A DNA stretch of 64,000 nucleotides from Paecilomyces variotii (taxonomy: Eukaryota). This document shows positions 15,109 through 62,896 of the stretch, in pieces. Each line of letters opens with the position of its first letter. The stretch's first letter is position 1. The stretch is taken from assembly GCA_004022145.1 (NCBI GenBank), contig RCNU01000001.1; one strand, 5' to 3'. The notes beneath the pieces were generated by a model. That model made no database searches and was not told the origin of the DNA. It worked only from the letters and a program-made list of their open reading frames with translations. The position numbers and the translations under genes are program-made.

Positions 15109-15479
15109 TATAAAAAATTAAGGTAAGGAAGCTTTTTATTAGAGGTAATTAATTAGATTAGTCAAATAGAATATAAGATAAGAGATAGAGATATAGGCAA
15201 ATAGCTGTCTATATATAATAGAGTTAAAAGTGAGATTTAGTAGTAATCAGAATAAATTGCTAATTTGTCTAATTTCTATTTTTTTAGGGGTTATTTATCT
15301 ATCTGTTTATTCTATTAGGTTATTTAAATAACTTAGTCTTAACGGCTCTATCTATAACTAGCTAATCTAATTATTATATATAGATCTAGTTATCTTATTA
15401 TCTTTTATTATTTATCTTAGGTTATTTATCCTAGGTCTTAGTAGGTCTAGATTAGGTATTATAGCCCTAGTTCGTAATA
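15109..15479 (-). repeat. 5' LTR of element B (371 bp)
   Basis: Partner of 2117-2487; ends ttcgtaata (RIP form of a ...ACA terminus). Confidence 0.93.
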
Positions 15480-42777: not shown

Positions 42778-43637
42778 GAGGGAATACTTATTGGGTGACA
42801 AAATGGAATGCTTTTTATGATTGACTTTTGAAGGAGTTTGGTTCCTGGAGTGCATGGCTCGTGATTCTGGGCGGTGTTTTTTTCTAGGACTGCTGCTTGG
42901 TAACTCGGCCCAGGGGATTTTTTTCATGGCTCATACCGGCTGATACCTCCTGCTCTAGCATATAATTATATGCAATAATCCAGACAAATGGATTCCTTAG
43001 AATAAAGGTGTGTTAAAGACGCGTATTTGCAGTAGCCGCTGTTAGAGATGTTCTAATCGTGGACAACGTGGATTTAGTCGTATCATCTGCCAGATATTAG
43101 TATTAAGGACCGTGCCCCATCTTTGGTCTCGATAGAAGGGGCAGGATTTGCATTGTGGAGAAGGATCTAAGTAATCGGACGCCATCGCCAGGCGTAGCTA
43201 AAGAATCACCCTTTTGGCGTACATCATGATGCGGACCGAAAACCAAGACGCAGGCCTTTTCGGAGAACAAACTACTTCAGATCACTTGTGAGTCGCCACA
43301 GAGAAACACGTTATACGGAATTCAAAGTCGTCAATAACAATATGGGGCGCCGGAAGCGGCGGAGAGGCGGAGCGCTAAAATCAGTCCGAGTCCGCACATT
43401 GTTGGAAATGTTCACATGGTGTGTCGCGCATCGTGAGTTTACCTAGGCTAATAGAAGAAGTTACTTCGACTCCGCTAATAATACTTTCTCCGGCCTCTTC
43501 CTCGGCGCTTTCTAATTGAATATATGTCACTGGTGCTCCCCGCAATTCAAAGTCACTCACTGGCACTGCTAACTCCCCCAGAAATGACCTGAGAGCATTG
43601 ATATATATATACGAGAATCCTCAAATAGCTAATAATC

Positions 43638-45466
43638 ATGGGGGTGCTCGCGGTAGTCATCATTGCACTCGCGTTCTATGCAATCTTTACTATCCTCCGG
43701 TCTATCCAGCAATTCAATAGACACCGCAAGAATGCAAAGGCTCTGCGCTGCCAGCCTGCACCCCAAGGACGACCCGGTTTCTACGGCATTCCGGCCTTCT
43801 TGAAACTGGCCCGAGCTGTCCGGGAGAAGAGATCGGTTGAATTCATGGCCGAACAGTATGAACTATATGGAAATACTTTTGCACAGAAAATCCTTGGACG
43901 ACATCTTGTCACAACCATCGAACCGGAGAATTTAAAAGCGCTCTTAGCTACTCAGTTCAATGATTTCCGCCTGGGGAATCGACATCGAGAGTTCTATCCG
44001 CTTCTGGGAGATGGTATCTTCACTTTGGATGGTGCAGGCTGGTCGCACGCGCGAGCATTACTGAGGCCCCAATTTACGAGGGACCAGGTACGTTAGTTGA
44101 CTGAATGGCGGTTGAACAGTTTTCCTCAGAAACGGCTGGTGCTAATTGACCTTGTCAGGTTGCTGATCTGGCGATGATGGATGAACATGTCATGAGGATG
44201 ATCGATATCATTCCCAAAGACGGCTCCGTGTTCGATATCCAAAAGCTTTTCTTTCTTTTAACGATGGACTCTGCGACCCACTTCTTATTTGGTGAATCCG
44301 TCGGATCCATGCTTCCAGCTTCTTCCAGTCCCGGAGTACTCGAAAAATCCACCGGCGGCGCGCAGGGCTTTGCTGATGCATTTAATCTGGCACAAGAATA
44401 TCTCGCCGCTCGATCGCGAGCCCAGGACTTTTACTGGATGGTCAACCCCGCGGAATTCCGTGAAGCGACAAGGAAAGTGCATGATCTAGTAGACCACTAT
44501 GTCCAGTTGGCTCTCCAATCCCGAAACAAGCCGCAGAAGCCAGATGACCGGTATATCTTCTTGCAGGCTCTGGCGGCGGATTCGCCAAATCCAAAGGTGC
44601 TCAGAGATAACTTGCTCAATATCCTTCTCGCAGGCCGAGACACGACGGCTAGTCTGCTCAGCTCTGCATTTTTCCTCTTTGCCCGTCATCGACACGTCTG
44701 GGACCGTCTTCGACGAGACGTTATTCGCCAGTTCGGCGACTGCAACCACAAAGTTTCTGATATCACACATGCGAAGCTGAAGGATATGCCTTATCTTCGT
44801 TATGTTCTTAATGAAGGTGAGCTTGACATCCAGAAGGCCCATACTCCATTATAGCCTATGATACACCATGACCCCTGATGTTCACATTATACGGCATTTG
44901 CGATTTCGCTATGCTTGCTAACACACTATACAAGTCCTCCGCTTGTACCCTCCAGTGCCAATCAACTTCCGCGTTGCTGCCACAGATACATCTTTACCCG
45001 TCGGTGGCGGTCCGGACGGAATGTCTCCGATATATATCCGGAAGGACTCAGTGATCACATACGTAGTCTACGCCATGCACCGACGAAAGGATCTATGGGG
45101 TCCTGACGCAGAATCATTCCGACCTGAGCGATGGGAAGAAAATGGCAAGCACAGCTGGGAATATCTTCCCTTCAATGGCGGGCCGAGAATCTGTCTGGGT
45201 CGTAAGTGCCGTCCTCTTATTTATTTCCCCTATCCCTCCTTTACTCCTGCTCGCAAGCCTAGCCAGATTGGATAACTAACAGGTCATCAGAACAATACGC
45301 CCTTACTGAAGCGAGCTACACAATAGTTAAGCTCATGCAGCACTTCGACACTGTCGAGAACGCTGACCTGGACCTCGAACAACCTGTCTTGGTCTCTAAT
45401 CTCACCATGTCTCATGACAGAGGCGTTAACATCAGACTATATAACTCTGGAAAAAGCTGTTACTAA
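43638..45466 (+). CDS. Cytochrome P450, CYP52 clan (alkane/fatty-acid hydroxylase-like), 4 exons
   Basis: '[25 protein letters not shown]', I-helix 'AGRDTT', '[10 protein letters not shown]', 'FRPERW', heme motif '[14 protein letters not shown]'. Confidence 0.95.
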
Positions 45467-45852: not shown

Positions 45853-47202
45853 TTATTTCCTAGTAATTGTGACAGAGATATCTGTCACCTCCTTGAGAGA
45901 ACTCGACGTGAACAGGGCCAAGGTGCGCTTGTCTCTCTTGTATTGCCCCAAGCTGCCGACAGGAGAAATCTGAACGCTGTATCCATTTGGAAACGTAGAA
46001 GGCGGCAAGATGATCTCTGTAGGCGCGTCGATATTCGGGTCGCTTGTGAATTGCAACTTGAAAGTGCCCGATTTCTCGTCGAAGCCAAACGAAGTGGGCG
46101 TGCCAGCGATCGCGGCCGGATACGCACGGCTGTAGTGCTTCTGCAGCTCTGGATACGTCTTTCCAGAAGTGCCCTTATACAGATTCTCATATGCCCAGCC
46201 GATCCAAGACACTATGTGTGCATCAGTCGCCGTCATGGCATCTGCCATGTCTCTCATCTGCTTATCGTCGCCAACCCAGAATGTCAACTCTGTAAGGACT
46301 CCGGCAGTTTTGAGTCGCACGTTGTCCTGGTGACGGTTTCGGAGTGTATCGGAGATGGCGCCCACCTGTGGTGGATGGTAGTAATGGAATGAGTGCACCG
46401 TCTTGGATCCGTCGGCGAGAGGCACGTTGTTAAAGCCAGATAAAATATCGAAGGTAGTCCCTTCGAACCAGATGAGCGTGTCATTATCGACGCTGCGGAT
46501 CTGTTTCGCTGCGAGGTTCCAGAGGTCCTCCAGAACCTTGCGGTCAGCGAATCCAGGTATAAGGAGCGTCGGATCAGCCTGTATGTCCCCAGCCCAGGGC
46601 TCATTTAGCAGATTGTACCCTACGACATTGATGGTTTCGACATATTCCGACGCCAACTTCTTCCAGTATTCCGCGAATGCATCTCCAAGACCGTACTGGT
46701 TCTTGTACAGTCTTCCGAAAGCGTTACAAACAGCCACAGATAGATAACCATATTCCCAATTAAAGGTATTGCATTGCGATTGGGGCGAAGGGAAGCCATC
46801 ACTGTCAGTAGTAAATGGCCATAACTGGACAGGAAATGGGAACCTTTTCCAGGCCGGTACCCAGTCTTTCTTGACAAACCACTGCGCTCTTGGTCAGTCA
46901 AGTAGTTGATAAAAAGAACTAACTTGCTTTCCAAAACTCACATCAGGCACACCATGGCCACAAAATTGTCTGGCCAATAAATCTTGATGTACGTCCACCA
47001 ATACATAGATTCCTTGCTCCTCTGCCAGCTTTGTTTGTTTTTTCATGATATCCAAAAATGTCTGATTGTACTCGCCACGAACTGGCTCAGCACCCGCCCA
47101 GCTGTGTCCCAACCGCACAATATTCAGCCCCAAATCATGCAAGTTTTGTACATCTTGCTCGCCAAACGACGAGACTCCGGGGGTCCACTCTTGGTCCGAC
47201 TC
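45853..47202 (-). CDS. GH5 endoglycoceramidase-like glycosidase; N-terminus not found (possibly 5'-truncated)
   Basis: 'GLNIVRLG..W...EP.RG.YN..FL', 'VDVHQD', 'GHGVPDW', acid/base 'NEP', 'SFHYY', nucleophile 'LTE' and C-terminal beta-domain 'SRAYP.AIAGTP'. One intron at ~46883-46942. In-frame TAG at ~47203-47205. Confidence 0.8.
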
Positions 47203-48744
47203 CTAGGGTGCATTCTAAGAGTTAAACTGTTATACTACTAGCAAAAGACTAGGAGGATATCAGATCGGAAGACCTAACGCTGCACTTACTCATATAGAAA
47301 CTTGTTGCCACGCTGTTACACTTTATGTGATATTCAATTATAATAGCAGAATCTGGGTAGCGCACTGGGGTAGTAGGGGGGGGGAGGGGGCAGTTAGGCG
47401 TCTGCATTATAGTATGTGACGGAACTTACATTCGGGCGAAGTTGGTTATACGCATTACAATGTTATGTATGGAAGACAAGGCCATTTTACCATCTGCGCC
47501 ATTTCTAGTGCTTGGAGGATATAAGGAAAACTGGAAACAAAGTTGGACTTCCTCCTTGAGTAAGTAGCGTCAAGGACAAAGCAACTGATTCGCTATGTCT
47601 ACCAGTCTTCCGAGGGATCGTGTACGGATCTAGGTCAATGATATAATGTAACCGTGCTGTTTCACTCATTGAAACAGTGACTAAAATATGAGAAAGTTGT
47701 TCTAATTGGACAGAGATGAAGTAGGACCTATAGTTTAGTGCTTAATGATCCTGTTCTTTAGACCGTAAGTCAAATCATTGATCATAAGCACTTAGTATTT
47801 TCGCAACTATGCAGGCCGATCTGCTACGTGTTCTGAGTGAGTGCACATGACCACGGCGATTGGATGGGTAAAAATGCAAGCAGATCGGACTAAGTAAAGA
47901 TATCTGTCTCAGCCAGCCACTGAACCTTTTGACGACCTCTTATATGGTAGAATTTGACGAAGCTAGTGTCCTGCACAGCTCGGCTCCGGAGCTCCGGACG
48001 GTGCTGTAAGTACATGTACATACATACTTTAACGGGCCGTGCCGTAACGCATGCAATATTGCAACATTAAATCGAAACCAAAGATTAAGCCCTAATTCAG
48101 ACGAATAGTGTATTGTGTCTGTTAAATCTGCCCAACTTTTAGGCTTCGGACTTTCTATGAACTGGCGTTAAAGTTCATCACTTCGGATTCCCAATGGATG
48201 GCCGAGGTGGAGTATGCAGTCGCGTTGTCCCAACTCTGCAAAGAAGAACAGATGGGGAGCTGACCCTGTGGAACCATTTGTATGAGCTCATTAGATAGCC
48301 ATGGATACATAACACATATGCCGGTTCATGTGTGCTGAAATAACTCTCAATGTGTGAGACTTGATTTGAACCACGACTTAGAAAAAACAGGGAAATGACC
48401 AGAGATTCAGCTCGCCACCTACTCACGAGTCAATGACCACCTCCCTCCCAAGCAATGATAGGCCAAGAGGGGTATACAGTACTTCTGTTCGCAGACGGAG
48501 CTGTACAGCTTGGCTACTTTGGCCCTATGCCCTATATGAAGGATATCGAGAATATAAAGGGAACCATGTTCTTGAGCTGTAGAGGATAAATCAGTGCCAT
48601 CACTATTCTTTACCTCTTACACGAAGTTTCCTAGCTGCTACGCATCTTCACTTTTATCACCCAAGTGCCCAGACAAATCTGGAAAAAAAAAAAACGACTT
48701 CACGTACGAGCCTTTCCCACACGATAACTTCCATCAAAATCATC

Positions 48745-49077
48745 ATGAGCAACACGGTCTGGACCGAGAATAAGGATCACTCCGTCGAAGGTCACACCCT
48801 GACTGGCGCCCTCTACTACAACGACACCCTTATTTGGGGACCCAGAGGTTGCCACGGAAACACGAGACGTCTCGGAGATGCCCTCCACGACCTTGACCGT
48901 GGCTTTTACATGAAATTTGACGACAAGGAGAAATCAATCGAAGGACACACGCGCTACATCAGCGTCAAGGCCAAAGGCAATGTTATTCTCGACAAACTCA
49001 GTACTCATCCCAGCATGGATGAATTGGCTACCGTTGTCAAGGGTGTTCTAGCTGGTAAAGGAGAACTTGCTGAGTGA
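48745..49077 (+). CDS. 110-aa hypothetical protein made of two ~52-aa repeats
   Basis: Good start context (atcatcATG), upstream tataaa at ~48553, coding-like codon use; repeats 'KDHSVEGHT...CH' and 'KEKSIEGHT...TH'. Confidence 0.8.
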   Translation: MSNTVWTENKDHSVEGHTLTGALYYNDTLIWGPRGCHGNTRRLGDALHDLDRGFYMKFDDKEKSIEGHTRYISVKAKGNVILDKLSTHPSMDELATVVKGVLAGKGELAE

Positions 49078-50007
49078 AGGCTTCAACCGGTCTTCTGGGG
49101 TTTCATAACCAAGGTTATATATCGGGGAAGAGAGGCATGGACTTGGTCAGAGGCGAAACCGAAAGAGGTCATTCAACATCACTCATACAGACTTCAAGAG
49201 ATGCTTTCAACAACTCATCATCAATTGGAACACCTTTTTTTGCGCCAGCATTGATGTCGGAGCAATAGCTGTAGTTAGTGAAATCGATTGGGATCAAGTC
49301 CATACGCATTGTATGATTCATTCTTCAATCGATCCATCTGATCATGGGTCATCTTCTTTTCTTCTCCATCGAAACCTTGGGAGCACCCTGCTCTAGGCAT
49401 AAGAGACGATGTTGGGCTGATAGTTACTAACTTTACCGACTCAGTAAACAATATATTCCGCGCCCCTCACGGGGTTCAAAGGTTGCTCCTGGAATATCCC
49501 CCTCCACATGTAGCAGTCTCGCACTTCGCAGCATCTATGTGCCAGTATCTATGCAATAAACTTTATGGGAATATCAAAGGTTTTCATGGTTGATATTGGG
49601 AATCTTGAAGATGCACAGAGAGCAGATTACAGAGTACATAAGCTTGAAAAGGGAAAGAGTAACCACGGAATAGGATTGATTCACTTACAATGAAACAAAA
49701 AGAGCCCAATCTGACAATATTTCGATAATTGCAGCCTATATGTTGTACATACTATACTTACACTTTTGGATCTGTGAAACCGGATGGAATTCAATATTTT
49801 CTGTCAGCATAGAATCCTAAGCGTGAAGAGGAAAAGCATGAGGGAGATAGCCCACTTCCCTAGCTGTCTCCGGTAAGCAGAACCCACCCACTTTCTGGGG
49901 GCGTTGGTCTGCTTCATCTCAAACCATGCGAACATATAAGTTGGTCATGTGATAACGGTCAGATCAATCAACCTGACGAGGCCGTCACACTATGAAGCAG
50001 TGAAGCT

Positions 50008-50400
50008 TGTTGCAGATAAACAAGTAACATGATTGGCGTTAAGGCCAGGAGAACAATAGTAGCCTCAGAACAGGAAAGAGAGATTTTGGCTTCCTATACC
50101 CCGGAATCTTGTCATTGGCGCTATCCCTGCCTTCATCATATTGTTTTTCCCATGGTAGCCTTGATGCTAACCCCGCCCGCTGCAGCCAAGCTTAATATCT
50201 TCTCACGGCTGCTAGAGAGGAAAGGACTGGTCAAGGGCTTATATTCTCTAGGAGGGAGCGAGCTCCAGCTCCAGCAGCTATCTAGCTACCTAGGTATATA
50301 AGCTGTGCGCTGGGCTGGGCTCGAAGAGGAAGGGGGCAATATCCTCCTGGCTTAGGGCCAAGATCTTCGCAGATGAAGTCCGTATATATATTTGTCAACA
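50008..50400. mobile_element. Possible solo LTR
   Basis: TGTTG...CAACA termini, internal tatataa and TAG-rich stretches. No matching TSD (aagct vs cggtg). Confidence 0.3.
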
Positions 50401-50602
50401 CGGTGTAGCTCAATCTGATGGTAGTCCATTTCAAATTCCAATAAGAGACTAAAGTTACCGTTTGGGAACGCATACAATTGGAGGTGAGGATGATCCCAAG
50501 TGTATAAAGTCGAGGTGCATGAAGTTGTTTTTTAATTGTGAAGGTAATTAACAGACTGAAACAACTAGAACCCCATCCGAAAAAAATAAATACATCGTCA
50601 AT

Positions 50603-52184
50603 CTAGACAATAGCCGCCAACTTCCCATTCTGCGCAAATTTGGCTGCGAGCAGGATGGCGCCTCCCAGGATTAGGCTAGCTCCTGAGTACACGGATAGGG
50701 CGAGGAATCCGTATTTCTGACCTAGTTCGCCGCTGATTACAGTGCCGGCCATAGAGCTACAGTGACGATTAGTATTAACGTCAAATCCCGAAGGCTACGG
50801 AAAGGAGGTTCTGGAGATGGACAACGTACGAAAGAGAGCACGAGCCCATGACAATTCCGATAACTGTACCCACCGTAGTTGGTGTGGCGATCTGAGCGGC
50901 ACAGGCTTGTTGAAGTGATAGGATTGCCTTTGGTTCAGCCTATTAGTATAGTTACAGTACATTCAGGTGGATGCCTGCCACTTACCCCAGAGCAGAAGCC
51001 ATATGCTGCGGAGAATATCACCAGACCAGCCACGGATGTCACCTTCGTCCAGCAGAAGGCGATAATACCGGATAACATGGTCGCCAAGATGCAGAGGTTG
51101 AACTTGCCATACTTATCGGCGACAATTCCGGGGATGATGCGTCCGAAGAGCGAGGCACCGTTGATAATCGAGATGGTGTAGAAGGATAGGTTCGATGAGA
51201 AGCCTTTATCGACCGCATAAGCGGTAGTGTAGAAGAAAGGTGAGAACATGCCAAAGTAAACGATGAAGAAACCGGCGCAGGATAGCTGTAGTTCTGGTTT
51301 CTTCACGACAGAGAAATCCAACTTCGGTTTAGCGGGCGGTTGATCTTCTTTGGCAACTGGCTCTGGATCACTTGCTGCTGAAGATGCAGACGACGGCGCA
51401 GGTGGTGTCTTTGGTGCCGGTTGGCGCCCTGATAGGGAAGAGATTCCCAAGATGGGCAGCATTATGAACCCAACAATGCGCATCGTCCACCCGAATCCAA
51501 CGTTCGATTTCTCAAGCAGTTCGTGTACGACGACAGGCCAGATGACACCTCCCAGGGATGATCCCGCGATAACCATACCAACTGCCGCTGCCCGTTTCTT
51601 CTGGAAGTGCTTGCTGATGATAGCTATCATGGGGGTCACGATAAATGCCATCGAAATCCCAAGAAGGATACCCTGCGCAAGGATGAACTGGTAGAGCTCC
51701 TTGCAGAGAGATGCCATCATGATGGAGAAGACAACCCCAAGAGATCCCAACCAGAGCATCAGCTGTTTTCAAGAATCAGGTTCTGTCCATAAAATATATT
51801 GGGCTATCCTTCGTACCTCCGGACCAGATACATCAAGCAAAGGACCTGTGAAGACTGAACCCGCGAATATGCAGAATACGTTGATCGCCCCGATCCATGC
51901 AATGTCTGTTTCCTTTTGATGTGCTAACTGATTCTCCGCGTAATAAGTCTCGAAGACACCGAAAGCGTTAACGAAGCCGACGGTGCAGAACATCGACCCA
52001 AATGCTCCAGCTAAAGCGATCTTTGCCTGAGCTCTGAAATGCGAAAGACTGTCAGGAAAAATGAAATTCCATGGGAAAGAAGGATAGATACATACGTGAG
52101 TTCATTGGCTTCCTCAGTTTCTGGGACCTTGGGGGGTTCCTCCTTGGGGGCAATCTCCCCTGAGACTCTCTCTTCCTGACCCAT
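50603..52184 (-). CDS. MFS monocarboxylate-porter (MCH-like) transporter, multi-exon
   Basis: 'GFVNAFGVF', 'YQFILAQGIL.G', 'F.KKRAAAVG..IAGSSLGGVIWP', 'GFGWTMR', 'GRIIPG.VADKYGKFN'. Confidence 0.92.
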
Positions 52185-52723
52185 TTTTCGACCAACTCTG
52201 TGAATCTGTTTCCACGCAGAAGCAAAGGCTGCTTTGGGAAGGAGAGAGATGGGAGCGGATCAGGAGTTTCAGTTATAAAATAACTGATAGAGACCGTTCT
52301 CGATACTTGCTAGTGGAAGACACTGACGAGTAACTTAACTTACACCCCGAACGGCCAGGCTCTGGGCTTCTTATATTAAGGATCGGCATGTTTACAAAAA
52401 TTCAAGACTAAGTGGAAAGGCCAGCTCCGGAGGGGAAATCGGAGAATCCATGGGACCATTCTATGACTGGTGACCGACCGCATGGAGAATATACCGAAGT
52501 CGATCAGTTGTTGTTCCCATACATTGCGGCCCCTGATGCACCCCGGAGCGTCCGCGGACTGCCCGAGAGCGATTGTCGGAGGGTGGAGGGAGGGCTCTTG
52601 CGTGCGCAATGATATTCTCGTGCAATCTTCACAATGAAAGTTAACATTGAGCAAAATAATGAAGAGCTGAGTCTTCTTACCTCTCTGTCCAATATCCACA
52701 TGCAATAACATCCATCGTGTCTC

Positions 52724-55106
52724 ATGGATGGAGTTGAAGCAAATCGAAGCATCAAGCCGGACCCGAGCGGGGCACGTGATTCAGTTACACCGGGAAGTTC
52801 ACGTCCAAGATCGCAAATATTCTCACGCAGTCACGAACTATCGAGCAGAATGAAACGGAAAGCTGAAGCAGGAAGCCCCGAGGCAGTCGAAGCAGATGCA
52901 TCGCGCAAGCGGCCACCCCGCCAGGATCCTGTGTCGTGCCAAACATGCCGTGCAAAGAAGCTAAAGTGTGATCGGAACCAACCATGTGCGAACTGCACGG
53001 CGCGCAAGATCACCTGTATCTATGGCACTGGTCGCATAGAAAACGCCTCTGACAGGAATACTCAATACACTCAGGAGAAACCGGACGCGACTATCGTGCC
53101 TCATCAGGAGCATGGAGCGAGGCGCCAGCCACTGAGTTCCAACGAGGCACGACCGTCGCGCGAGAGTAGTGAACAGTGTATGACTGCAGACTGGTTGGAG
53201 AACATTGTTATGGGTCCGAGGATCCCGGATGCCCTGCCAACGACCCTTAAGGACAAATTGATCCCATTTCAGCAGAATGGCAACGAGGAAGCCGTCCAGC
53301 GGGCGATGGCCATACCGCTTGGAGCGACTGGGGGGCGTCAGTTCAATGTGCGCAACTCCTATCTGAGAGGGCAAGAGAGGAACCTTGGCAGCATTTCGTT
53401 AGCTAGCCTACTACCAACGAAATCAGAGACTCTATCCCTCTTCAGGTACTACGTGGACTGCATCGATTACCTATACCACGTCATAGTACCAGTTCGCGTT
53501 GAACGCATGATCGATGATATCTACAGGTGCATCGAGAATAATTCTCCCGTCAATCTGAACCATGTCGCTCTCTTGGCAAGCATCCTTGCTGTTACTGTCT
53601 ATTTCCGGCCGCAGAGCGCTACAGAATATACGGAGTCAAGCGATGCAGATGCGAGATGTAAAGAGTTTACTTCCCTGGTAGGCGCTGCCTTGCTACAAAG
53701 CAACTTCATTGCATATCCTACGATCGAGGGACTCCAAGCGACTATAATTATAGCTCACTACTTATCAAGCCTAAATACTGACCCATCTCTGCGCTCGCTT
53801 TTCCTACACGGTACGATTGTCAGTCAAGCAAAGAATCTCATGTTGCACTACACAGACACACCACAACACCAGGAAGAGAGACGAGTAAATGGGTTCGATA
53901 GTGTAGAGGTAGAGACAAGGCGACGACTGTGGTGGCATCTTGTTGCGTATGACTGGTAAAGATTGCTGTGCCTCCTTGATAGCGGACTTTGCTAATGATG
54001 GAGTACACAGGTTACTAGGGTTCTTGAGCGGACCGCAAGAAAGAACATACCTGATACACCCTAATCACATGAACGTCAGACGCCCACTAAATATTGATGA
54101 TGGTCCTTCCCAATCCTACGGGAGCGAGCGTGGGCTTAAACGCTCTATTCCTACTAGCATGTCATATTCTATCGAACGGTTGAAGCTGGCCTTCGTATGC
54201 CGCGAGATTGTGGATGAAACTGCAGTTGAACACTTTCAAGGTCTGGAAGTCAATTATGAAAGAATATTGGATCTTGACCGCAGAATCCAGCAAGTCTACA
54301 AGGAACTTCCAGAGTTCTTTCGTCTTGACCCCGTTAGCAGACGTCGCTATGCTCAACTCTATCGGGAGCGACCTACAATTGCTTGGCAGAGGTGCTTGGT
54401 ACAACAAGGCTACCATTCTCGTCTGTGTCGTCTTCACCGCCAATACTTCATCCGGGGTGCTGGAGACCCGGCTTTTTCGTATTCACATGTTATTTGTCTT
54501 CAGTCAGCACGGAAGGTCCTGGAGATCAAACGCATCATGGACGAAGAAGAGCCGATTTTCACCCCTAACAGCTCTGTGGTGTGGTCGGTAATGCATCACG
54601 TCTTCATGGCGGCCGTCATACTATTAATGGATGTATGTTTCAATTGGGATGATATTCTAGCCAACAAGCGCAGGGAAGAGGTACTGGACGCCTGTCGGAT
54701 GCTGAGCAAAGCGCAGCAGGCTTCAACGCTCGTTAGAGAGGGTATAAATGCCATGATGAGCATATTGCAAAAATACTGGCGACCTGCAAGATCCAATCCT
54801 GGACCAGTTGATCCGACTACATGCACTGCAACGACAGCATTCACCAGCAACTCTATGGTTGTTGAGAGCCCTGCATCGAATGCTCTTCCGACGCCGCAAT
54901 CGAATTTCCCGACTTCTGAAGTCGATGGCAAATTTCTGGCTAACCCTTCTCCTGTCAACGATGCATTTTCTATTGACAATGGTAGCAGAGAACTGGAAGA
55001 TATCTGGACCGCAATGCTGGACAACGGTGGTAATCTCGCTACTGAGCAGACAGACTGGATGGATCTTCTGACTGAACTTACCAATGCGACGATACCTTGT
55101 GAATAA
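52724..55106 (+). CDS. Zn(II)2Cys6 transcription factor with fungal MHR domain
   Basis: CQTCRAKKLKCDRNQPCANCTARKITC and 'E.RRRLWW.L...DW'; intron 53956-54010. The start may instead be 52850. Confidence 0.95.
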
Positions 55107-55441
55107 GGAAAGCTGGTATTGGGTCTCGATATGCATAAAAATCAAATTTTCGTGGTGTTCGGGTCTAACGGAACATCGTTAGGTTCTGTCAATAGAGTTG
55201 CTATCTCCGACGGGCCTGACCAATATCACCCCCTGGAACCTTATGCCGATGAGAACCTATTCATTCCCAGGCGCAACCAATCGGCCTCTGTTGAAGACGT
55301 CACAACACATTCCATGATCACGGCCACATATACCGGATCTATTCCAAAGATACAATATCCCGCTCTCCATACTTAGCAGCAGATCAACCAAATCCATATT
55401 GCATCCTCCTGAGAAAAGTAATAGCTTGGTCAGCCTGCGCC

Positions 55442-55999
55442 ATGTCGACGGAGAGTAATCTCCCTCTGATACACCGCTACATCACCACGCATAGCAAAGA
55501 GGGCGAATCCGTCTTCGTCTCCACGAGCCAGTTTCCCGAGTGCATACCTGCCCGTCCTGCAGGAGAGGATGGCGACCTGGCCCTTCTCTACGCAACCGCT
55601 TCATGCCCCGTCCAGCCTCACGACGAATATGACGTCGCGCTATACGACGAATACCTGCACACGCCTCAGGGGCTCGTACCGCCCACAGGATCCGTGATCC
55701 GAACGATCGATCTACGACCGGGGAAAGTCACCCCCATGCATCGTACCGTCAGTCTAGATTACGGCATCCTCCTGGAAGGCGAAGTGGATCTTATCCTGGA
55801 CTCAGGCCAGAAGCGGATCATGAGGCGCGGAGATGTCATCATCCAGAGGGGAACGGCGCATTCATACAGGAACCGAAGCCAGACGGAGTGGTGTCGGATG
55901 GTGTTTGTATTTCTGCCCATGGAGCAAATTACAGTCGCTGGGAAGACCTTAGATGCAGAGGTGTATGATGAGCCCTATGAACTGGGAAAGCAGCAATGA
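55442..55999 (+). CDS. Cupin-domain protein of the type found in fungal polyketide clusters
   Basis: 'RYITTH..G', 'PMHRTVSLDYGILLEGE', 'GDVIIQRGTAHSYRN'. Confidence 0.9.
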   Translation: MSTESNLPLIHRYITTHSKEGESVFVSTSQFPECIPARPAGEDGDLALLYATASCPVQPHDEYDVALYDEYLHTPQGLVPPTGSVIRTIDLRPGKVTPMHRTVSLDYGILLEGEVDLILDSGQKRIMRRGDVIIQRGTAHSYRNRSQTEWCRMVFVFLPMEQITVAGKTLDAEVYDEPYELGKQQ

Positions 56000-56419
56000 G
56001 CAATGCTATATGAATATGTTTGTAATATCAACACACGATCCGCGTAGCATACTCTCGCTTGATTTATTATTTGAACACATGGGATAAGTTTGAATTGCTT
56101 CCGATAGATGACTGGATAGATCCTTCCATCGGAGACAATTAATCAAGACAGGGCCCTTACTCGGCGTTAACATCGACCTTATTATTCTTGTCTACATAGT
56201 TTAGAGAGTATGATAACCATCCCGATCCCGTGCGGGAGCTAGTACAGCTTCGGTATAGAACTTACCTTGGAGGGCTTAGCATATAAATAGCAATCCACAT
56301 AACAGACTTTCATAGGTCCACCGTCCGAGTCTATCTAAACTTCTGTTCTTAACAATGATGTTGTAATGGACAGCAGCGTCATCAACTTTCGTTTATATGA
56401 GGCGCGGAAGCTAGGAAAG

Positions 56420-57120
56420 TCGGGACTTAAGCGAGAGACAGCATTGTCAACCAAGTTGGCAGCCAAGGCGCCGCTCAGAATCTTCAGCACAGGAACGTCG
56501 AGATTGAGATGCTTGGAAAACCACGAGGCTAAGTACCGTCACCGCGCTGAGAGAGTCCACGCCCTGGTCGATCAGAGGGGCTGCCAGACTCAGCTCGTCG
56601 CCCTCAGCGAACAGCAATGCTCCCCGGATTCTGCTAGACACGTCTTGGAGGATGACGGTGCAGCGCCTGTGGTAAGAATAAACATATCATTTTGGGCCTA
56701 GCTTAGAGCTTCAGAGCTTGATTCTAGAGGAATCAAGCATCTTCATCTCTTCAGCCTACAGCCTCTGAAATATCACCATCACACCCGCACGCTTTCAGAG
56801 CGGACGTATGGCTCTGCGCAAGGATGCATGGTGCGAGTGATAAGCCTTGTCAACTTTGAGGACTCAAGCAGACGGCGATTCGTCAAAAAGAACATCGTAC
56901 GCCTCTAGAAATAATGGCATCTTTATCTCCGAAAGGTGTGACGGTGTCTGGGCCATTGCTCACTGCGACTAGCATTCTACCATTGAAAGACTCAAGAGCG
57001 CACATGTCGCTTGCGTCGTCGAAAGAGGTGTCCGCAGCCATCATGACACTCTCCACACCATCTGGTGATGATATACGCCGTCCGTCTCTAATTCTTTTTA
57101 TTTGACTGACGCTTAAAACC
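56420..57120 (-). pseudogene. Collapsed reducing PKS or PKS-NRPS pseudogene (AT fragment plus ACP fragment)
   Basis: AT: 'MMAA..SFDDA..MC.LE.F.GR..VA.SN.P..VT..GD.DAI' and 'LKVDKAYHSHH' (~56826-57060). ACP: 'PLIDQGVDSLSAVTV', then a frameshift, then 'SWFSKHLNLDVPVLKILSGA' (~56420-56620). Confidence 0.85.
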
Positions 57121-57529
57121 AATGAGCCTTGTACGCCTGTCTCAGAAGACGCCGACTCCTGCAGCGCCTATCGACTACGGATACTATACAACAGAAAATA
57201 CCGAATCGGTGATACTAACGAAGAATTATGAGTTATTCTCCTTCACGAAGACGTCATATAATCCGGGCAGGATTCGCCCGGCTCCTAGTTAATGCATGTT
57301 GAGTATTCTAACTACATACAAGCAACCAGCCAATGGGTTCGACCGTCGACCTATCTTATGGAGAAGGATAATCGAATTTCCCGTATTGAATACGAAAAAA
57401 CAATGGCTAATTCTTCTTAGGTACATAAGTGGGGGGTACATGTTTTTTTTAATTTCCCAATCTCCCATAGTCGTGTCGATTAGGTTGCATTGCCACAGAG
57501 GCTCAATGCAGAAGAATCCCATTTCAATA

Positions 57530-57760
57530 TGAAGGGAACCGAAACGTTCGAAAGTGGCTTTGCTTGCTGAAACATGTCCGGCTCATTACCCCAAGACTAT
57601 GCAAGATAATCGAGGTATTATTCAGATATCGCAGGACATGCACGCCGAAGGTGTTGATAAGGCCGTGGCTGCCGAGGATCGCAGCATAAGTCCCGGTAGG
57701 AAGAGCGTATGCTTTTTCGGAGTCAACATCGCAGCCCAAAAGTAGGGACCACCGGTCTGG
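57530..57760 (-). pseudogene. Amino-acid/GABA permease (APC family) fragment
   Basis: 'GGPYFWAAML' and, in another frame, 'YAAILGSHGLINTFGV..LRYLNN.SI.LHSLGV'; no complete gene. Confidence 0.7.
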
Positions 57761-58664
57761 GTTAATGACATCCTAGTGTACGGATGGTGGTGGTCGAACA
57801 GTGAGGTATCGCCAAAGCTCCATAGCATATCTGATATCTTCACGGCATCTGGAGGTTTCTGATTCGGATGTTGGCAATGGGCTCGATTGATTTGTCCTCG
57901 GGTGCGTGAAGGCATGGACGGTTGCTTTATTCTCAGAGTTGGAACAAACGCCGATGATTCCTCGAACAGCTTTGCAAGGGCTGACACTGACGGCCACTCA
58001 TCTCGGTTGAATCGGCAGTTCAGAAGGGAAATTCGAATGGCGGCTCAATAGAGATCGTATGCTTCGGGGAGTTGAAGCTCGCATTCTCTATTTTGATGAT
58101 TGATCAGCATCGAAAAGATCGGGACCTTGGGTTAAGCAATTCATGTGTGCGTTGTATGTGGCGACTCCCATGATTGCTCTGTCCATGAAGTTGGTTCGAT
58201 GCCTGTTGTTTGTGAGTTCATCTTGGTTTCCTTGTTCCCCAGCGAACAAGTACTCGTCACCAGCACTGCGCAGAAGTGTGAACTCGACGCTGGTGTGAGC
58301 CCCCCAGTCGAGGCACCGGTGCCCCCCCCAGGCACCGGTGGACTGGTCCGGCTCCCCCCCCCCCCTTCTTCCTCCCCTAACCCCATCTACCCCTGGCGCC
58401 CTGGCTGCGCAGCATTCACTCCCCCCGCCTCCGCCCTCCCACCCCCTTCGCCCACCTCCCGGGCCTCCTCGAGCAGGGCGGCCGCTACTATGAAGGCCAC
58501 CGCTGCCTTCCACAGTTTAACTGGGATAGTATCCCGCGGCTGCTCCCCCCACGCCCTCCTCGCCGCCCTCCCCGCCCTCACCAAAATATTTATGAGGAAT
58601 AATCCCCCACAAACTACCGCCATAATCTCGAGAGTGTTTTCCGCCCACACGTATCCCATCTTGA

Positions 58665-58754
58665 ATGTGTTCAGATGTGTTCAGATGTGTTCAGATGTGT
58701 TCAGATGTGTTCAGATGTGTTCAGATGTGTTGTTGTGTTGTTGTGTTGTGTTGG
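58665..58754. repeat. Minisatellite (ATGTGTTCAG)x6 decaying into TGTTG/TGTG repeats
   Basis: Six perfect 10-mers, directly visible. Confidence 0.95.
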
Positions 58755-59187
58755 TGACCTCCAGAGGCGGATATTATGGACCTCTGGGGGGCACTGGTTA
58801 TGGAAAGAGCAGTTTGGGGAAGGCACAAATGTCACCACCTACACCTGCCTCTCTACAAACCGAGTATTCTATGTACAACTGGAGGATCCAGCACGAAGAC
58901 CACATTGAACATTTTCGTGGAATACTTGTCGGTATCAGGAGACTCGGCTGCTGCTTGGTTGGCCCTGGCTCCAGGATCTGCATTTGCTTTCTTCTATCCA
59001 AGCGCTCCAGGCCTGCCGTTTTCATTATTACTATCATCGCGTCATCATCACTGTCCAGAAAGGCCTCAAGGTTATCGCCTTGGCCGTCTCCTAATCGTTC
59101 TTCGTGACCAAGCTATCCACCTTCCCATTCCCTCTGTTGCGCTTTTTTAGTCATTCAGATCGATCTCTGCGTCCTCTGTTGTATCCA

Positions 59188-60378
59188 TTATCGATAACCT
59201 TTGACGGAATGGATTCTGTACCTTCCTTTTGGAGTGGGCGCGAATGTCTCAAATTGGCCACCGTTATATACAGCACCGGTTTCTGGATTATACATGCTAT
59301 CCAACCAGTCTGAAAATTCCCGGCAATTATCGAGGAAGGCAGAATCGACCCATCCATATGATGCATAACGCCATATGGAAGAAAACCCTGTTTCAAGCAT
59401 GCCAAAATAGCGAGAGATATGGAGTTCAATCAATCCATCTGGTGTAATTGTCATATAGTATTTTGCCTTACAGAAAATGCAGTATCGGATATCACCCGGA
59501 CTTAGATCTCGGAAAAGACGCTTGGCAAGTATATAAGTTGTCTTATGTGGACATATTGGAATGTCTGCACTCACGCATAAACGATCAAAGCCAACCAGTC
59601 CGAGATCTGAGAGTCTCCCAAGGTAGAACCGGGATAAGAGACGCATTGTGTCTAAATTGAACTCCACATGCTCTGAAAAGCAGCCGCCAGCAGGGATCGT
59701 AATAGATGAGCCAACTTTCTCTCTGCAAGACCTCATTCCTAGTACTAGGGTTCGGAGCTCAGCAAATGTCATTTCATAGCAAATGCCAACCCAGATCTTC
59801 CTCCTTTTATATTTGCAGCTGCGGGTAATGGCATCAGAGCAGTTTATCCTCTGCTCTTCAATTGACAATTTTAAATTGACGGATTTTTGCGGGGAGTAAA
59901 AGGAACTAGTCCTTGATTTTCTGTGAGTCCTCATACACGCCCAGCAACAGAAAGACTCGGTGCCTTTCCCACAGATTTTATCAAATTCCATCAGGCGGAG
60001 GATATGAAAACGTGCTTCTGTAAGGCTCCAGCTATTATGTGCCGTTGTAGCCAATTTGTGTCGTATATAAATAAAAGCTCGAATATTAGCTCTCGCATAC
60101 CAGAGTCGAGCACAGCTAATCATCAAACAGAAGGTCTCGGCGATAGGGAGATATTGACAGATATGGTCGATTAACTCAACGGGGAGACAGTATAGTGGCC
60201 TTTTCGCATTGAGGGTTCGTACTGTGTTCAGTCGTACCGAATTGGCGATGTTCATCAATATTTTGGAGTGTTGTCTTGTCCTGTAACCGATCAGAGGCAT
60301 TTTGTAGGGTAAGGTAAGCGTAGAGAAATGCTCAACATAATAAAGAATATGCGATGCGCTGACCTTAAATAAACCCAT
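59188..60378 (-). CDS. F-box protein with Cys/His clusters, intronless (true start may be downstream)
   Basis: F-box 'LYCLPVELIDHICQYLP....CL..SC..LW'; 'CCWAC...H', 'PICPH', 'YC.FC'. Confidence 0.75.
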   Translation of the reverse strand: MGLFKVSASHILYYVEHFSTLTLPYKMPLIGYRTRQHSKILMNIANSVRLNTVRTLNAKRPLYCLPVELIDHICQYLPIAETFCLMISCARLWYARANIRAFIYIRHKLATTAHNSWSLTEARFHILRLMEFDKICGKGTESFCCWACMRTHRKSRTSSFYSPQKSVNLKLSIEEQRINCSDAITRSCKYKRRKIWVGICYEMTFAELRTLVLGMRSCREKVGSSITIPAGGCFSEHVEFNLDTMRLLSRFYLGRLSDLGLVGFDRLCVSADIPICPHKTTYILAKRLFRDLSPGDIRYCIFCKAKYYMTITPDGLIELHISRYFGMLETGFSSIWRYASYGWVDSAFLDNCREFSDWLDSMYNPETGAVYNGGQFETFAPTPKGRYRIHSVKGYR

Positions 60379-61174
60379 TTCTAATCATCATCAGGTATAT
60401 TACGAACTGTGAGCGTAATACATTGTGATCTACGTGGTGTTCAATTACGTTATATACTTGTAGTCCGCCAAGCCTTGTCATAGGTAAGTACCCTAAGTCT
60501 GTATTGGGAGGGTTTGAAGTAGAAAATAGGTATACAAGAAACATTTTCAATGTTATTTGAAACCCTAGCACGTTTGGTTTGGTCTGAGATCATTGCTTTA
60601 ATTGCAAGCAATGCTCTGCCTTGTTATTCAATAGATGAATTGGTTGATTTCATGGAGAAATCATGGTGTTGGGCATGTTGTGCGCAGTCGATTACATATG
60701 TTTAACTAGTCCCTTGCACCTATCGTGCTGCATTTGGCGAGTACAACATCCCTACAGGCCCTTTCTGTTTGGAGCCGTTCTCTTTAGAGTGCAGTTACTT
60801 GAAACGACAAGTATAAACATGAGGGGAGCAATAATAAGAACATTTGCAATGATCATATACTTGGAAGGCATAGATAGTTACGCCTTGTGCTGCGGAATAT
60901 TGCCGAGTACAGTGCGGAATTATCGGCACCAGACTAGGCTGGATCTGGCGAAACTACCGCCATACGAAGAGCCAATGGATAAATATAAATTAATTTCTAT
61001 TAATTGACCAAAGAACACTCTGCGCCCTGGGACTCTCGTTCGTTTTCTCAATTCACACTTTCTCTAGGGGCTGCCGGTGCTTGCTTGTCGGTTGTCAGAG
61101 AAAAGAAAAGAAGAAGAAAAAAATCTAAGTATCCGCAACCCATTCTTTACCCCGCGCCAGCGACAGTCAGCGAG

Positions 61175-62896
61175 ATGGACCGCGAACAGTTCAAGGCCGC
61201 TGCACATGCGGCCATCGATGACAGTAAGTTTGGCCTTTGATCGTCCGTCCGAGATTGATTAAGACGCGATTTCTGTGATAGGGTCGTGCAAATGCTTTGA
61301 AGGAGTGGACAACCGCTAAGCAGCATGGAATCGCATAGTCATCGACCATTTCGATACCGTCCCCTCGAAGCCTGTTCTGTCCACTGTCCAGCCGGGATAT
61401 TTGCGTCCTTTGATCCCCGATGCCCCTCCAACCGAGCCGGAAGAATGGTCTCAGATTCAAGCAGACGTCGACTCCAAGATCAAGCCCGGTCTGACACACT
61501 GGCAATCTCCCAACTTCATGGCGTTCTTCCCGGCCGGTGTCACTTACCCCAGTATTCTGGGCGAGATGTACTCTGCTGCGTTCAACGCGCCAGCCTTCAA
61601 TTGGCTCTGCTCGCCAGCGTGTACAGAGCTGGAGACCATCGTGATGGATTGGGTCGCCAAGGCATTGGGTCTCCCGGAATGTTTCCTCAGCACCTCGCCA
61701 AACGGCGGTGGCGGAATCATCCAGGGAAGTGCGAGTGAAGCCGTAGCCACGATGATGGTGGCTGCGCGAGAAAGACGTGTCCGGGAACGAGCCTTGGCTG
61801 AGGGTCTCAAGGAGGGAACGCAGGAGTACGAAGATCGCACGATGGAGCTCCGGCCCCGACTGGTCGCCCTGGGCAGTGACCAGGTTCACAGCAGCACGGC
61901 CAAGGGGGCTCTGATTGCAGGCACCCGATATCGCAGTGTTCCCACCCGTCTTGAAGACAACATGGAGATGACGGCCGATGCGCTGCGGGCAGTTCTTGAG
62001 CAGTGTGAAAAGGATGGGCTGGAGCCGTATTATATGACCCTGACCATGGGAACGACGAGCAGCTGCGCAGTGGACCGTTTCGCCGAGCTCAAGGCGGTCC
62101 TGAAGGAAAAGGAATCATGGCAGAGAATATGGGTGCATATCGACGCTGCCTATGCGGGAGCGGCTTTGGTGGCCGACGAGTATCAGCAGATCGCGCAGGA
62201 GTGGGCCGAAGGAATCGACAGTTTCGAAATGAACATGCACAAATGGCTCCTGGTCAATTTTGACGCTGGGTGAGTTCAAAATATCGATTCCATGTGAAAC
62301 GGGACTAACTGAGTCTCTTCAGGTGCTGCTTCGTCCGCAACCGCTTGGATCTGACAACCTCCTTGGATATCACGCCGGCCTACCTGCGCAACCCTTATTC
62401 AGAAAGAGGATCGGTGATCGACTACCGGAACTGGCAAATTCCCCTGGGTCGGCGGTTTCGTGCATTGAAGATCTGGTTCGTCATGCGCAGCTACGGATTG
62501 GTTGGCCTGAAGAACCACATCAGGAAATGCGTGTCCATTGGAGACGTCTTCACAGACTTGGTTCGCAGCCGGCCAGACCTCTTCGAGATCATCACCAAGC
62601 CTGCCTTTGCGCTCACGGTGTTGCGCGTCCGCAACCCCAAGGCAGTGACAGCCAACGGCACGGCCCACACCGTTGCTCAGCCCGACGAACTCTCTCACGA
62701 TCTGACGAAAGAAGTCTACGAGCGGATTAATGCAGCGGGTGAAATCTTCATCACTTCTAGCGTTATTGCCGGTATATACGTGATCCGCGTTGTTGGTGCC
62801 AGCCCGACTGTCGAGGAGAAGCACCTTCGACGGGCTTTCGACATTCTGGTCACGACCACGGAGTCGGTCCTCAAACAGAAAATGGAGAAAGCATGA
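61175..62896 (+). CDS. Aromatic-L-amino-acid decarboxylase (group II PLP decarboxylase), 3 exons
   Basis: 'MDREQF..AAH..ID', 'PGLTHWQSPNFMAFFP', 'SPACTELE', 'HIDAAYAG', PLP-Lys 'NMHKW', 'WQIPLGRRFRALKIWFV'. Introns at 61224-61338 and ~62270-62322. Confidence 0.96.

Follow-up and report, generated by a model that had tools for sequence, protein, structure and literature searches.

Decayed fungal biosynthetic clusters are known in which a pseudogenized core synthase lies beside surviving neighbours. The locus analysed here, part of a 64,000-nucleotide stretch of Paecilomyces variotii DNA (the window), resembles these relic clusters in that deletions and frameshifts have left a core synthase in pieces beside intact genes of kinds common in clusters. 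It differs from them in that the neighbours that survive are jointly conserved in lineages that lack the synthase.

For the synthase, the closest solved structure to both surviving pieces is LovB, the lovastatin nonaketide synthase (PDB 7CPX), and the nearest named relatives are fungal PKS–NRPS hybrids (PsoA and the source-named aspyridone synthetase and fusaridione A synthetase). Compared with these enzymes, the remnant is down to some 125 AT residues plus the ACP and its tail, in a frame broken at least four times. For the neighbouring cupin, the closest solved structure is StrC (8x0u; 38% identity, Z 20.0, rmsd 2.0 over 168 of 185 residues); 3ES1, from the bacterium Novosphingobium, is equally close (40% identity, Z 17.7). 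According to one report, the StrC-type cupins StrC, VirC, PaltE and PsaCP, which are 47–54% identical among themselves, are PKS-pathway enzymes that work with a highly reducing PKS (HR-PKS) and two SDRs as an alkyl-salicylaldehyde-forming set; StrC is described there as a polyketide-pathway aromatase, and the palt cluster also contains a P450, an MFS gene and a transcription factor (PMC13463297). The window resembles palt in having a P450, an MFS gene and a transcription factor alongside the cupin, and of the alkyl-salicylaldehyde set it has the StrC/VirC/PaltE-type cupin while the two SDRs and the HR-PKS are missing, its sole PKS being a dead piece of the PKS–NRPS/LovB type. Among ORF pieces of at least 85 amino acids between 16 and 64 kb of the window, we found no Pfam match to adh_short or KR and no SDR or other biosynthetic domain.

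A truncated highly reducing PKS

The PKS remnant lies on the minus strand in two pieces. The 5′ piece (56778–57134) is a mid-AT fragment corresponding to residues ~665–790 of its homologues (LovB ~687–790), with LovB 687–739 as its top solved-structure match (E = 2.1e-8) and 74 library matches, the best of them 51–58% identical. Three frameshifts (near 56909, 56829 and 56800) disrupt its frame, as does a TGA within it. The AT active-site motif GHSxG is not recognizable here, the alignment beginning past the GHSSGE of homologue P0001. The 3′ piece (56242–56656; profile positions 2396–2475) comprises an ACP and C-terminal tail, aligns to at least 10 synthases by tblastn in frames −1 and then −2, and is broken once by a frameshift (near 56530) and once by a stop (near 56338), so that the whole remnant carries at least four frameshifts as well as the in-frame stop. 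The ACP serine motif GVDSL is present (56569–56549). This piece matches LovB 2464–2504 (E = 0.008), and the string PLIDQGVDSL is identical in LovB, which bears out an earlier reading of the sequence alone (the sequence-only reading) that had likened DQGVDSL to LovB-type synthases.

That reading had also held that KS, DH, MT, ER and KR were gone, and both searches agree with it. When 74 PKS representatives were compared with the whole window by tblastn, all HSPs with E < 1e-3 were confined to 56242–57134 and none of these five domains gave a signal; a search of 369 six-frame pieces with a profile of 14 full-length synthases returned matches to AT positions 678–769 and ACP positions 2396–2475 alone. 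Homologue positions ~665–790 (AT) and ~2376–2517 (ACP) are the only ones to survive, and the remnant contains neither a full KS-AT-DH-MT-(ER)-KR-ACP set in one open frame nor a condensation or NRPS part. A spacer of about 120 bp (56657–56777, minus strand) separates the alignable end of the AT at 56778 from the start of the ACP at 56656, where an intact gene has about 5 kb; the equivalent points in LovB are ~1,700 residues apart, and the spacer replaces ~1,590 codons (the remaining AT, DH, MT, ER and KR). The proximity of AT and ACP motifs described earlier therefore stands, with the distance from AYHSHH (56845–56828) to DQGVDSL (56569–56549) measured at 259 bp instead of ~200 bp. The spacer ends in pyrimidine-rich sequence, ...CCACAG, directly before the ACP exon, and this end looks like an intron acceptor. 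The two pieces share a strand and keep their native order, which fits an internal deletion. Judged by its sequence, the synthase is dead, a pseudogene that has lost the KS and everything between mid-AT and ACP.

By sequence similarity, both pieces come closest to HR-PKSs of the LovB/PKS–NRPS type. We looked up 20 relic-like synthase clusters, and all nine whose type could be read from the source name were PKS–NRPS or LovB-like. The remnant is still 45–60% identical to intact homologues. A 2-bp ‘AT’ after 56827, present in runs X15 and X17 and missing from X4 and the window, restores HHMHPC to frame, indicating that this frameshift varies between strains. The same join of AT and ACP occurs in X4, X15 and X17, the three further strains or runs with coverage there. 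Going by the residual identity and the strain-polymorphic frameshift, the remnant appears to be young. RIP indices are normal, so its decay was not RIP-driven.

Intact neighbours and their shared promoter

Gene models and Pfam matches confirmed the earlier description of intact, divergent MFS and Zn2Cys6 genes followed by an intact cupin. The MFS_1 transporter gene (50603–52184, minus strand) has five exons (52184–52096, 52033–51817, 51762–50986, 50927–50830 and 50756–50603) and four GT..AG introns; the spliced model encodes 444 amino acids in an open frame without a stop, and the MFS_1 match (E = 1.3e-22, profile positions 64–312) falls on exon 3. The Zn2Cys6 transcription factor gene (52724–55106, plus strand) starts at a first ATG at 52724, has an intron at 53956–54010 and stops at 55106; translation from that ATG yields 775 amino acids, and translation from the annotated start (52850) yields 733. 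Its product matches Zn_clus (E = 4e-8) and Fungal_trans (E = 9.6e-8) and shows all six cysteines of CX2CX6CX5CX2CX6C. The spliced model aligns over the full length of an annotated 733-residue P. variotii protein with two mismatches, and exon 2 is 100% identical to the representative of that protein’s cluster.

The cupin gene (55442–55999, plus strand), of the StrC-like subfamily, is an intact single exon of 185 codons whose product agrees with an annotated P. variotii protein at all but one of the 185 residues and matches Cupin_2 (E = 5.6e-9; 36 bits against a cut-off of 27.2). Its predicted structure is a β-barrel (mean pLDDT 81.6). Among 39 sequences, H17, H100 and H140 never vary and E112 almost never does, and these residues are candidate metal ligands; the classical motif-1 HxH reads HR in this protein. 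We found 182 homologues with 60–69% identity across Aspergillus, Penicillium, Talaromyces and Monascus. The window cupin is 38% identical to StrC but 60–69% identical to a separate, Eurotiales-wide group that is linked to a regulator. All three genes are intact by sequence.

The divergent MFS/regulator promoter spans 539 bp from ATG to ATG (52185–52723). It had been called rich in CGG/CCG triplets, but over its whole length enrichment was not above chance: it contains 18 triplets compared with 15.2 ± 3.6 in 2,000 shuffles, and 18 or more were reached by 25% of the shuffles and by 20% of 539-bp windows over 18–63 kb. What remains of that claim is a local cluster at 52527–52580, which coincides with a conserved 51-bp stretch. 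This promoter footprint (52531–52581) matches 6711–6761 of contig L002 from a relative with 78% identity by blastn, exceeding the ~70% identity of the coding DNA of L002 and the window, and includes the elements CGGAG-N-GTCCG, TCCGCGGA and CCG-N11-CGG.

The module in related moulds

Direct DNA synteny comes from one relative, represented by three contigs (L001–L003, apparently one organism) with a cupin 68% identical to that of the window. Gene order on these contigs, MFS (−), regulator (+) and cupin (+), is that of the window, and the MFS orthologue is collinear at 68–77% identity. The order in L002 is P450–MFS–regulator–cupin–(gap)–PLP decarboxylase. The corresponding P450 gene of the window (43629–45448, plus strand), with Pfam p450 matches on three exon pieces, shows 69–76% amino acid identity to L002 3739–2023 by tblastx. 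The L002 copy adjoins the MFS gene; that of the window is inverted and set apart from the MFS gene by a GH5 gene and a further ~3.4 kb. The P450 probably belongs to the conserved module as its fourth gene.

The regulator and cupin also appear to be linked in about nine further named Eurotiales species and one JGI contig, judged indirectly from locus tags or same-sized contigs. Their locus tags are adjacent or nearly so in T. atroroseus, P. chermesinum (two assemblies), P. angulare, P. herquei and R. byssochlamydoides, and the two genes lie on same-sized contigs in P. brasilianum, A. thermomutatus, Penicilliopsis zonata, T. proteolyticus and the JGI contig. In P. alfredii and P. salamii the orthologues are on different contigs. 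The gene model of the regulator orthologue in A. novofumigatus is fused to an SDR, which suggests that an SDR adjoins the regulator there.

L001–L003 gave no PKS signal. The L002 gap, too, was without a PKS signal by profile, and its 54 ORF pieces had no Pfam match at or above the curated cut-off. Across 80 loci of the cupin family, none had a type-I PKS match with E < 1e-3; just 26 of these loci extend 5 kb or more downstream of the cupin. Amino acid change between the window and L002 is constrained, with dN/dS of 0.17 for the cupin, 0.125 for the MFS gene and 0.07 for the P450 (that is, at most 0.17), values that are rough, as synonymous sites are saturated (including those of the P450) or dS is undefined. 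Given this saturation, an L002 locus with no PKS trace fits both a lineage that never had the synthase and one that lost it long ago.

A strain-variable gap

The remnant sits in a strain-variable gap of 5.2 kb between the cupin gene and a PLP-dependent decarboxylase gene (61175–62896, plus strand; Pyridoxal_deC E = 1.3e-71). The decarboxylase is 74% identical in nucleotide sequence to L002 14530–16038, 3.9 kb downstream in that contig, and forms the right-hand syntenic anchor of the gap. Relative to the window, X4 and X15 show a 290-bp skip at 58871–59162 and a diverged block at 59449–59546. We detected no similarity between the gap of the window and that of L002. The gap holds low-complexity sequence and a 10-bp microsatellite, and around the remnant there are no terminal repeats, target-site duplications or transposon domains. 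A possible fragment of an amino acid permease gene, unrelated to the PKS, lies at 57524–57772 on the minus strand (AA_permease_2, E = 0.0017, profile positions 119–153); at 17.8 bits, under the 27-bit cut-off, it is a weak lead, and neither solved structures nor the ESM Atlas offered a match.

Origin of the remnant and its neighbours

We favour ordinary gene decay, in which a young PKS pseudogene lies beside an older, independent conserved module, and give this a probability of roughly 55%, because the trio is conserved in related moulds without the synthase there. On this view, an old and intact Eurotiales module comprises the divergent MFS and Zn2Cys6 regulator genes, the StrC-like cupin immediately 3′ of the regulator and, close by, a P450. 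The regulator would bind the conserved CGG-containing footprint and switch on import or export by the MFS protein and modification of a small cyclic or aromatic compound, the modification being perhaps hydroxylation by the P450 and a dehydration- or isomerization-type step catalysed by the cupin. Such a module could respond to its substrate and serve in catabolism or detoxification without requiring its own synthase. An HR-PKS of the LovB/PKS–NRPS type would formerly have occupied the fast-evolving gap between cupin and decarboxylase in the Paecilomyces lineage. Large deletions would have taken its 5′ 2 kb (KS and the start of the AT) and ~4.8 kb of its interior, from mid-AT to just before the ACP, and the gene would have decayed in place to ~0.9 kb of collinear AT and ACP in which frameshifts are still accruing.

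The sequence-only reading had instead taken the MFS gene, regulator and cupin, to which the P450 might be added, for accessory genes of the collapsed synthase’s own cluster, persisting perhaps as a self-resistance or detoxification unit. Its components hold, namely a dead LovB/PKS–NRPS-like synthase and an intact, constrained trio; the step from these to the trio as remains of that cluster is not supported, and we consider it unlikely. The trio physically adjoins the remnant, the youth of which implies an intact PKS in the lineage until recently, an SDR stands beside the regulator orthologue in A. novofumigatus, and the saturation of dS means that L002 could have lost a PKS tracelessly. Yet the module persists under amino acid constraint without a PKS in L001–L003, so that in the one module-bearing relative sampled the orthologous trio is not linked to this PKS clade, and PKS-linked cupin loci number 0 of 80. 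Nor did the window yield an SDR, enoyl reductase, NRPS piece or relic of another tailoring gene, and the gap with the remnant differs even between strains. The cupin bears on both sides: its nearest characterized relative, StrC, acts in a polyketide pathway and palt combines such a cupin with a P450, MFS and transcription factor, so the module itself may have originated in a biosynthetic cluster, but the partner types are mismatched, the named relatives of the remnant being PKS–NRPS or LovB-type and StrC-type cupins being described as working with an HR-PKS and two SDRs. The surviving neighbours are probably not leftovers of a cluster.

It is also conceivable, if again improbable, that there was never a PKS gene at this site, and that AT and ACP fragments of a PKS from elsewhere were copied or moved into an unstable gap, with other fragments, during rearrangement or repair. 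The possible permease fragment, low-complexity sequence and microsatellite would suit such a patchwork, as would the strain-level indels, the dissimilarity to the equivalent gap of L002 and the lack of any KS trace despite ~2 kb of unassigned DNA upstream of the remnant. A single internal deletion is nevertheless the simpler account of AT and ACP pieces that are collinear, on one strand and in native order, and the remnant is not bounded by terminal repeats, target-site duplications or transposon domains. Nor was a highly similar parent gene found among the library sequences that were searched, the best match there being 51–58% identical.

Transcripts at the locus

RNA evidence consists of assembled contigs, the ‘RNA’ run X15 behaving like DNA. 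A contig from the RNA library of X17 covers the P450 gene and shows two splice junctions, 44813/44932 and 45201/45291, both with GT..AG ends. Another X17 RNA contig spans 57254–57866 and has a loose end of 23 T before 57254, pointing to a polyadenylated minus-strand transcript.

An intact trio and its shared promoter

The sequence-only reading had taken the MFS transporter, Zn2Cys6 regulator and cupin genes to be intact, and open gene models with Pfam domains bear this out. The MFS gene (52184-50603, minus strand) has five exons, four short GT..AG introns and an open 444-aa product (MFS_1, E 1.3e-22). On the plus strand, the regulator gene runs from a start at 52724 (annotated start 52850) to a stop at 55106, with an intron at 53956-54010 and Zn_clus and Fungal_trans domains; its spliced model is identical to an annotated 733-aa P. 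variotii protein save for 2 residues, and exon 2 has 100% identity to a transcription factor annotated in P. variotii. The cupin gene (55442-55999, plus strand) is a single exon encoding 185 aa, 1 of which differs from an annotated P. variotii protein.

The MFS and regulator genes diverge from a promoter of 539 bp, start codon to start codon, matching the roughly 540 bp proposed. Its supposed richness in CGG/CCG triplets did not hold up: 18 triplets were counted where shuffled sequence gives 15.2 +/- 3.6, and a count of 18 is reached in 20% of windows of the same size elsewhere. Within the promoter, triplets cluster locally at 52527-52580, overlapping a 51-bp non-coding block (52531-52581) that is 78% identical to positions 6711-6761 of L002, a contig from a relative, compared with only ~70% for coding DNA. 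The block carries CGGAG-N-GTCCG, the palindrome TCCGCGGA and a CCG-N11-CGG pair, motifs that make it a plausible candidate Zn2Cys6 binding site.

A LovB-like synthase reduced to two pieces

Beyond the cupin gene, the minus strand holds a dead PKS fragment. One frame (57167-56883) matches LovB residues 687-739 (E 2.1e-8) and another (56686-56447) matches LovB 2464-2504, PLIDQGVDSL included, so that the ACP is indeed LovB-type, as proposed earlier. Searching 1.84 billion representative proteins with the remnant gave 74 matches, the best at 51-58% identity. Aligned to the window as a whole with tblastn, these 74 proteins gave HSPs of E<1e-3 only within 56242-57134, homologue residues ~665-790 mapping to 57134-56778 (AT piece) and ~2376-2517 to 56656-56242 (ACP piece). 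We also built a profile from 14 full-length synthases and applied it to 369 six-frame pieces from window 56000-61200 and the equivalent gap in L002; it matched AT positions 678-769 and ACP positions 2396-2475 only, with no signal for KS, DH, MT, ER, KR or condensation domains. Both searches uphold the proposed loss of KS and of DH/MT/ER/KR. The AT motif AYHSHH (56845-56828) and the ACP motif DQGVDSL (56569-56549) are both present and close together, as described, and lie 259 bp apart.

The remnant retains 45-60% identity to working enzymes. Its coding path changes frame at ~56909, 56829, 56800 and 56530, an in-frame TGA falls within ...FAR-LKVDKAYHSHH, and the AT piece has no recognisable GHSxG motif. 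RIP was rejected as the cause of the stops because the RIP indices of the remnant are normal, and no transposon-like terminal repeats surround it. X4, a different strain (~1.5% diverged), is represented by a DNA contig unbroken over 50364-58685, and contigs from two other sequencing runs (X15 and X17) span the AT/ACP junction; the large deletions are therefore common to the examined strains. In X15 and X17, position 56827 is followed by two additional bases, 'AT', which put the minus-strand ...HSHH-MHPCAEPY... back in one frame, making that frameshift a strain-level polymorphism. The remnant thus looks as a recently dead gene under neutral drift should. Its history would be that of a LovB/PKS-NRPS-type synthase gene in the gap that decayed recently, by two large deletions and then small frameshifts; that it originated instead as a patchwork of fragments seems to us rather doubtful.

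A search for longer homologues with the AT remnant scored 0/148 candidates, among proteins of 166-2000 aa only. The second-best library match to the AT remnant, P0002 (JGI/IMG, 393 aa; 61% identity over 51 aa, tblastn), itself looks degenerate, with DHSWVE where its relative P0001 reads GHSSGE. Judging by this protein sequence, another organism may harbour similar decaying AT fragments.

The module in relatives

An alignment of 39 cupin homologues was used to retrieve 80 metagenome-contig loci, each including as much as 10 kb of flank in either direction. We searched them with the three proteins of the window's trio and with five full-length synthases. At 3/80 loci (L001-L003, contigs apparently of one organism, cupin 68% identical), the trio occurred in the window's order and orientation, with MFS on the minus strand and regulator and cupin on the plus strand. 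PKS linkage was seen at 0/80 cupin loci at E<1e-5 or E<1e-3, flank cover being >=5 kb downstream of the cupin in 26, >=5 kb upstream in 25 and both in 13. Two loci gave weak, unrelated matches (MFS at 26% identity in L044; 45 residues of a regulator in L075).

By tblastx of window 38000-64000, the window's P450 gene (43650-45448) corresponds to L002 3739-2023, inverted relative to the window, and a PLP-dependent decarboxylase gene (61175-62896; Pyridoxal_deC, E 1.3e-71) to L002 14383-16113. L002 is laid out as P450, MFS, regulator, cupin, a 3.9-kb gap and decarboxylase. The window has the same succession, with a GH5 cellulase gene and ~3.4 kb without assignment (45853-50364) between P450 and MFS gene and a gap of 5.2 kb before the decarboxylase. 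The GH5 segment is missing from L002, where the P450 adjoins the MFS gene in opposite orientation. Between 47190 and 50364, strain X4 has inversions and segments that have been replaced.

Compared with L002, dN/dS was 0.17 for the cupin, 0.125 for MFS exon 3 and 0.07 for a P450 exon, rough values with saturated dS (1.3-2.4); for the two regulator exons and the decarboxylase, NG86 gave no defined dS. Rough as they are, these ratios show long-term constraint on amino-acid change.

Wider linkage of regulator and cupin was read indirectly, from locus tags or matching longest-contig sizes of homologues. Locus tags were consecutive or differed by 2-3 in Talaromyces atroroseus, Penicillium chermesinum (two assemblies), P. 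angulare, P. herquei and Rasamsonia byssochlamydoides, and longest-contig sizes were equal in P. brasilianum, Aspergillus thermomutatus, Penicilliopsis zonata, T. proteolyticus and one JGI contig. The two genes lie on different contigs in P. alfredii and P. salamii. The regulator orthologue of A. novofumigatus, P0233, is a 1162-aa model with an SDR (adh_short, residues 37-272) fused before the Zn2Cys6 domain, so in that species an SDR gene immediately precedes the regulator gene, in the same orientation. Literature searches returned nothing on six locus tags of cupin or regulator orthologues, and, among the papers listed, nothing relevant on a conserved cupin/Zn2Cys6/MFS/P450 cluster or on PKS pseudogenes of P. 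variotii.

The gap between cupin and decarboxylase

In the window, this gap contains the PKS remnant, an F-box-like ORF (59188-60384, minus strand; weak F-box-type match) that is not present in the equivalent gap of L002, and 2 kb of DNA without assignment. The two gaps share no similarity. The L002 gap gave no PKS signal in the profile search, and its 54 ORF pieces had only sub-threshold, chance-level Pfam matches; Pfam matches were of the same low level in 67 ORF pieces from either side of the module and remnant, save a GH5 N-terminal exon.

X4 and X15 both show a 290-bp skip (58871-59162) and a diverged 96-bp block (59449-59546). A perfect 10-bp microsatellite (ATGTGTTCAG x 6.7) occupies 58665-58731, beside C-rich low-complexity DNA. 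Just upstream of the remnant lies a possible amino-acid permease pseudogene fragment (57524-57800, minus strand; AA_permease_2, E 0.0017, below the cut-off), for which we found no solved-structure match (E up to 10), no usable ESM Atlas match and no NCBIfam match. A nearby GGPYFW...PKK stretch presumably resembles permease motifs.

Cupin type and origin of the trio

The cupin is closest to StrC of Stachybotrys (8X0U/8X0V), both in sequence (phmmer E 5.7e-28, 38% identity) and in structure (Z 20.0, rmsd 2.0, 168 residues, using a model of the cupin). The model also resembles Novosphingobium 3ES1, a protein of unknown function (Z 17.7, 40% identity), and the next structures fall to Z ~12. No literature was found for 8X0U or 8X0V themselves. 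In PMC13463297, StrC is described as an aromatase, a StrC-type cupin makes alkyl salicylaldehydes together with an HR-PKS and two SDRs, the palt cluster has P450, MFS and TF genes in addition, and the pathway cupins are 47-54% identical among themselves.

The most economical reading of the locus is a conserved, synthase-independent module of P450, MFS transporter, regulator and StrC-like cupin, beside a strain-variable gap with a decayed PKS. The sequence-only reading had made the trio the remainder of the remnant PKS's own biosynthetic cluster. A dead LovB-like PKS does lie beside the intact trio, and the cupin family is known from PKS pathways; however, none of the 80 cupin loci was PKS-linked, and L001-L003 have the trio without a PKS. 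Whereas the four-protein system, as described there, uses two SDRs, ORF pieces >=85 aa across window 16-64 kb contain no SDR or other biosynthetic domain. The relic-like synthases are also of another kind: of 20 clusters looked up, the 9 with a type-indicating source name were all (9/9) PKS-NRPS or LovB-like. Nor does the window cupin group with the pathway cupins, falling instead within a distinct Eurotiales group (60-69% identity) that is linked to the regulator. We therefore regard descent of the trio from the remnant's cluster as unlikely; it keeps some weight, given that relatives of the cupin act in PKS pathways and that genomes of close relatives lie outside the comparison.

PKS pseudogenes next to intact genes are well known as a kind; this instance is new. 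It offers a dated example of PKS decay, with large deletions common to the examined strains and at least one frameshift still strain-variable. For genome mining, the locus illustrates that a PKS fragment next to three such genes (regulator, transporter, cupin) can mimic a decayed cluster when the three belong to an older, separately conserved unit; tools that set cluster boundaries, and catalogues of 'relic clusters', would mislabel such a locus. The more useful lead is the uncharacterised module with its StrC-like cupin, which occurs without a synthase and whose substrate is testable. Highly speculatively, and with little credence on our part, the Eurotiales-wide P450-MFS-regulator-cupin unit might be a synthase-less counterpart of polyketide tailoring machinery, in which the StrC-like cupin and the P450, controlled by their own regulator and served by the transporter, would recognise and transform cyclohexenone- or salicylaldehyde-type polyketides from other organisms (uptake/catabolism or detoxification). 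If so, the earlier proposal of a resistance or detoxification module would have the function right, but the unit would not be what the adjacent PKS left behind.

Transcript contigs across the locus

All four sequencing runs consist of assembled contigs, from which levels, strands and absences are not readable. X17, a cDNA metatranscriptome, contains genuinely spliced P450 contigs and contigs on the regulator. One of its contigs joins 55114 to 55182 with GT..AG ends, an intron between the regulator stop (55106) and the cupin ATG (55442) that lies either in the regulator 3'UTR or in a cupin 5'UTR beginning inside the regulator gene. Another covers the remnant (56445-56896), and a third (57254-57866) bears a 23-T loose end, indicating a polyadenylated minus-strand transcript that terminates at 57254. 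X17 cover is thin over the MFS gene, where X19, also cDNA, has no contigs; X19 has small contigs on regulator exon 2, cupin, remnant and decarboxylase. X15 was discarded as expression evidence: it is labelled RNA, but its unspliced contigs cross introns and intergenic DNA as DNA would. Regulator and cupin are represented in RNA libraries from two studies, and we claim nothing firmer.

Wider setting

A second F-box-like ORF (33181-34401, plus strand) has a weak F-box-type match and a DUF7600 match; its pairing with 59188-60384 as paralogues was rejected (BLASTP E 0.048). G+C content is 20-22% in window 1-16000, which bears a strong RIP signature (TpA/ApT 1.40; (CpA+TpG)/(ApC+GpT) 0.28), and 43-53% in the gene-dense remainder. 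The AT-rich RIP block abuts normal gene-dense DNA starting at ~17 kb.
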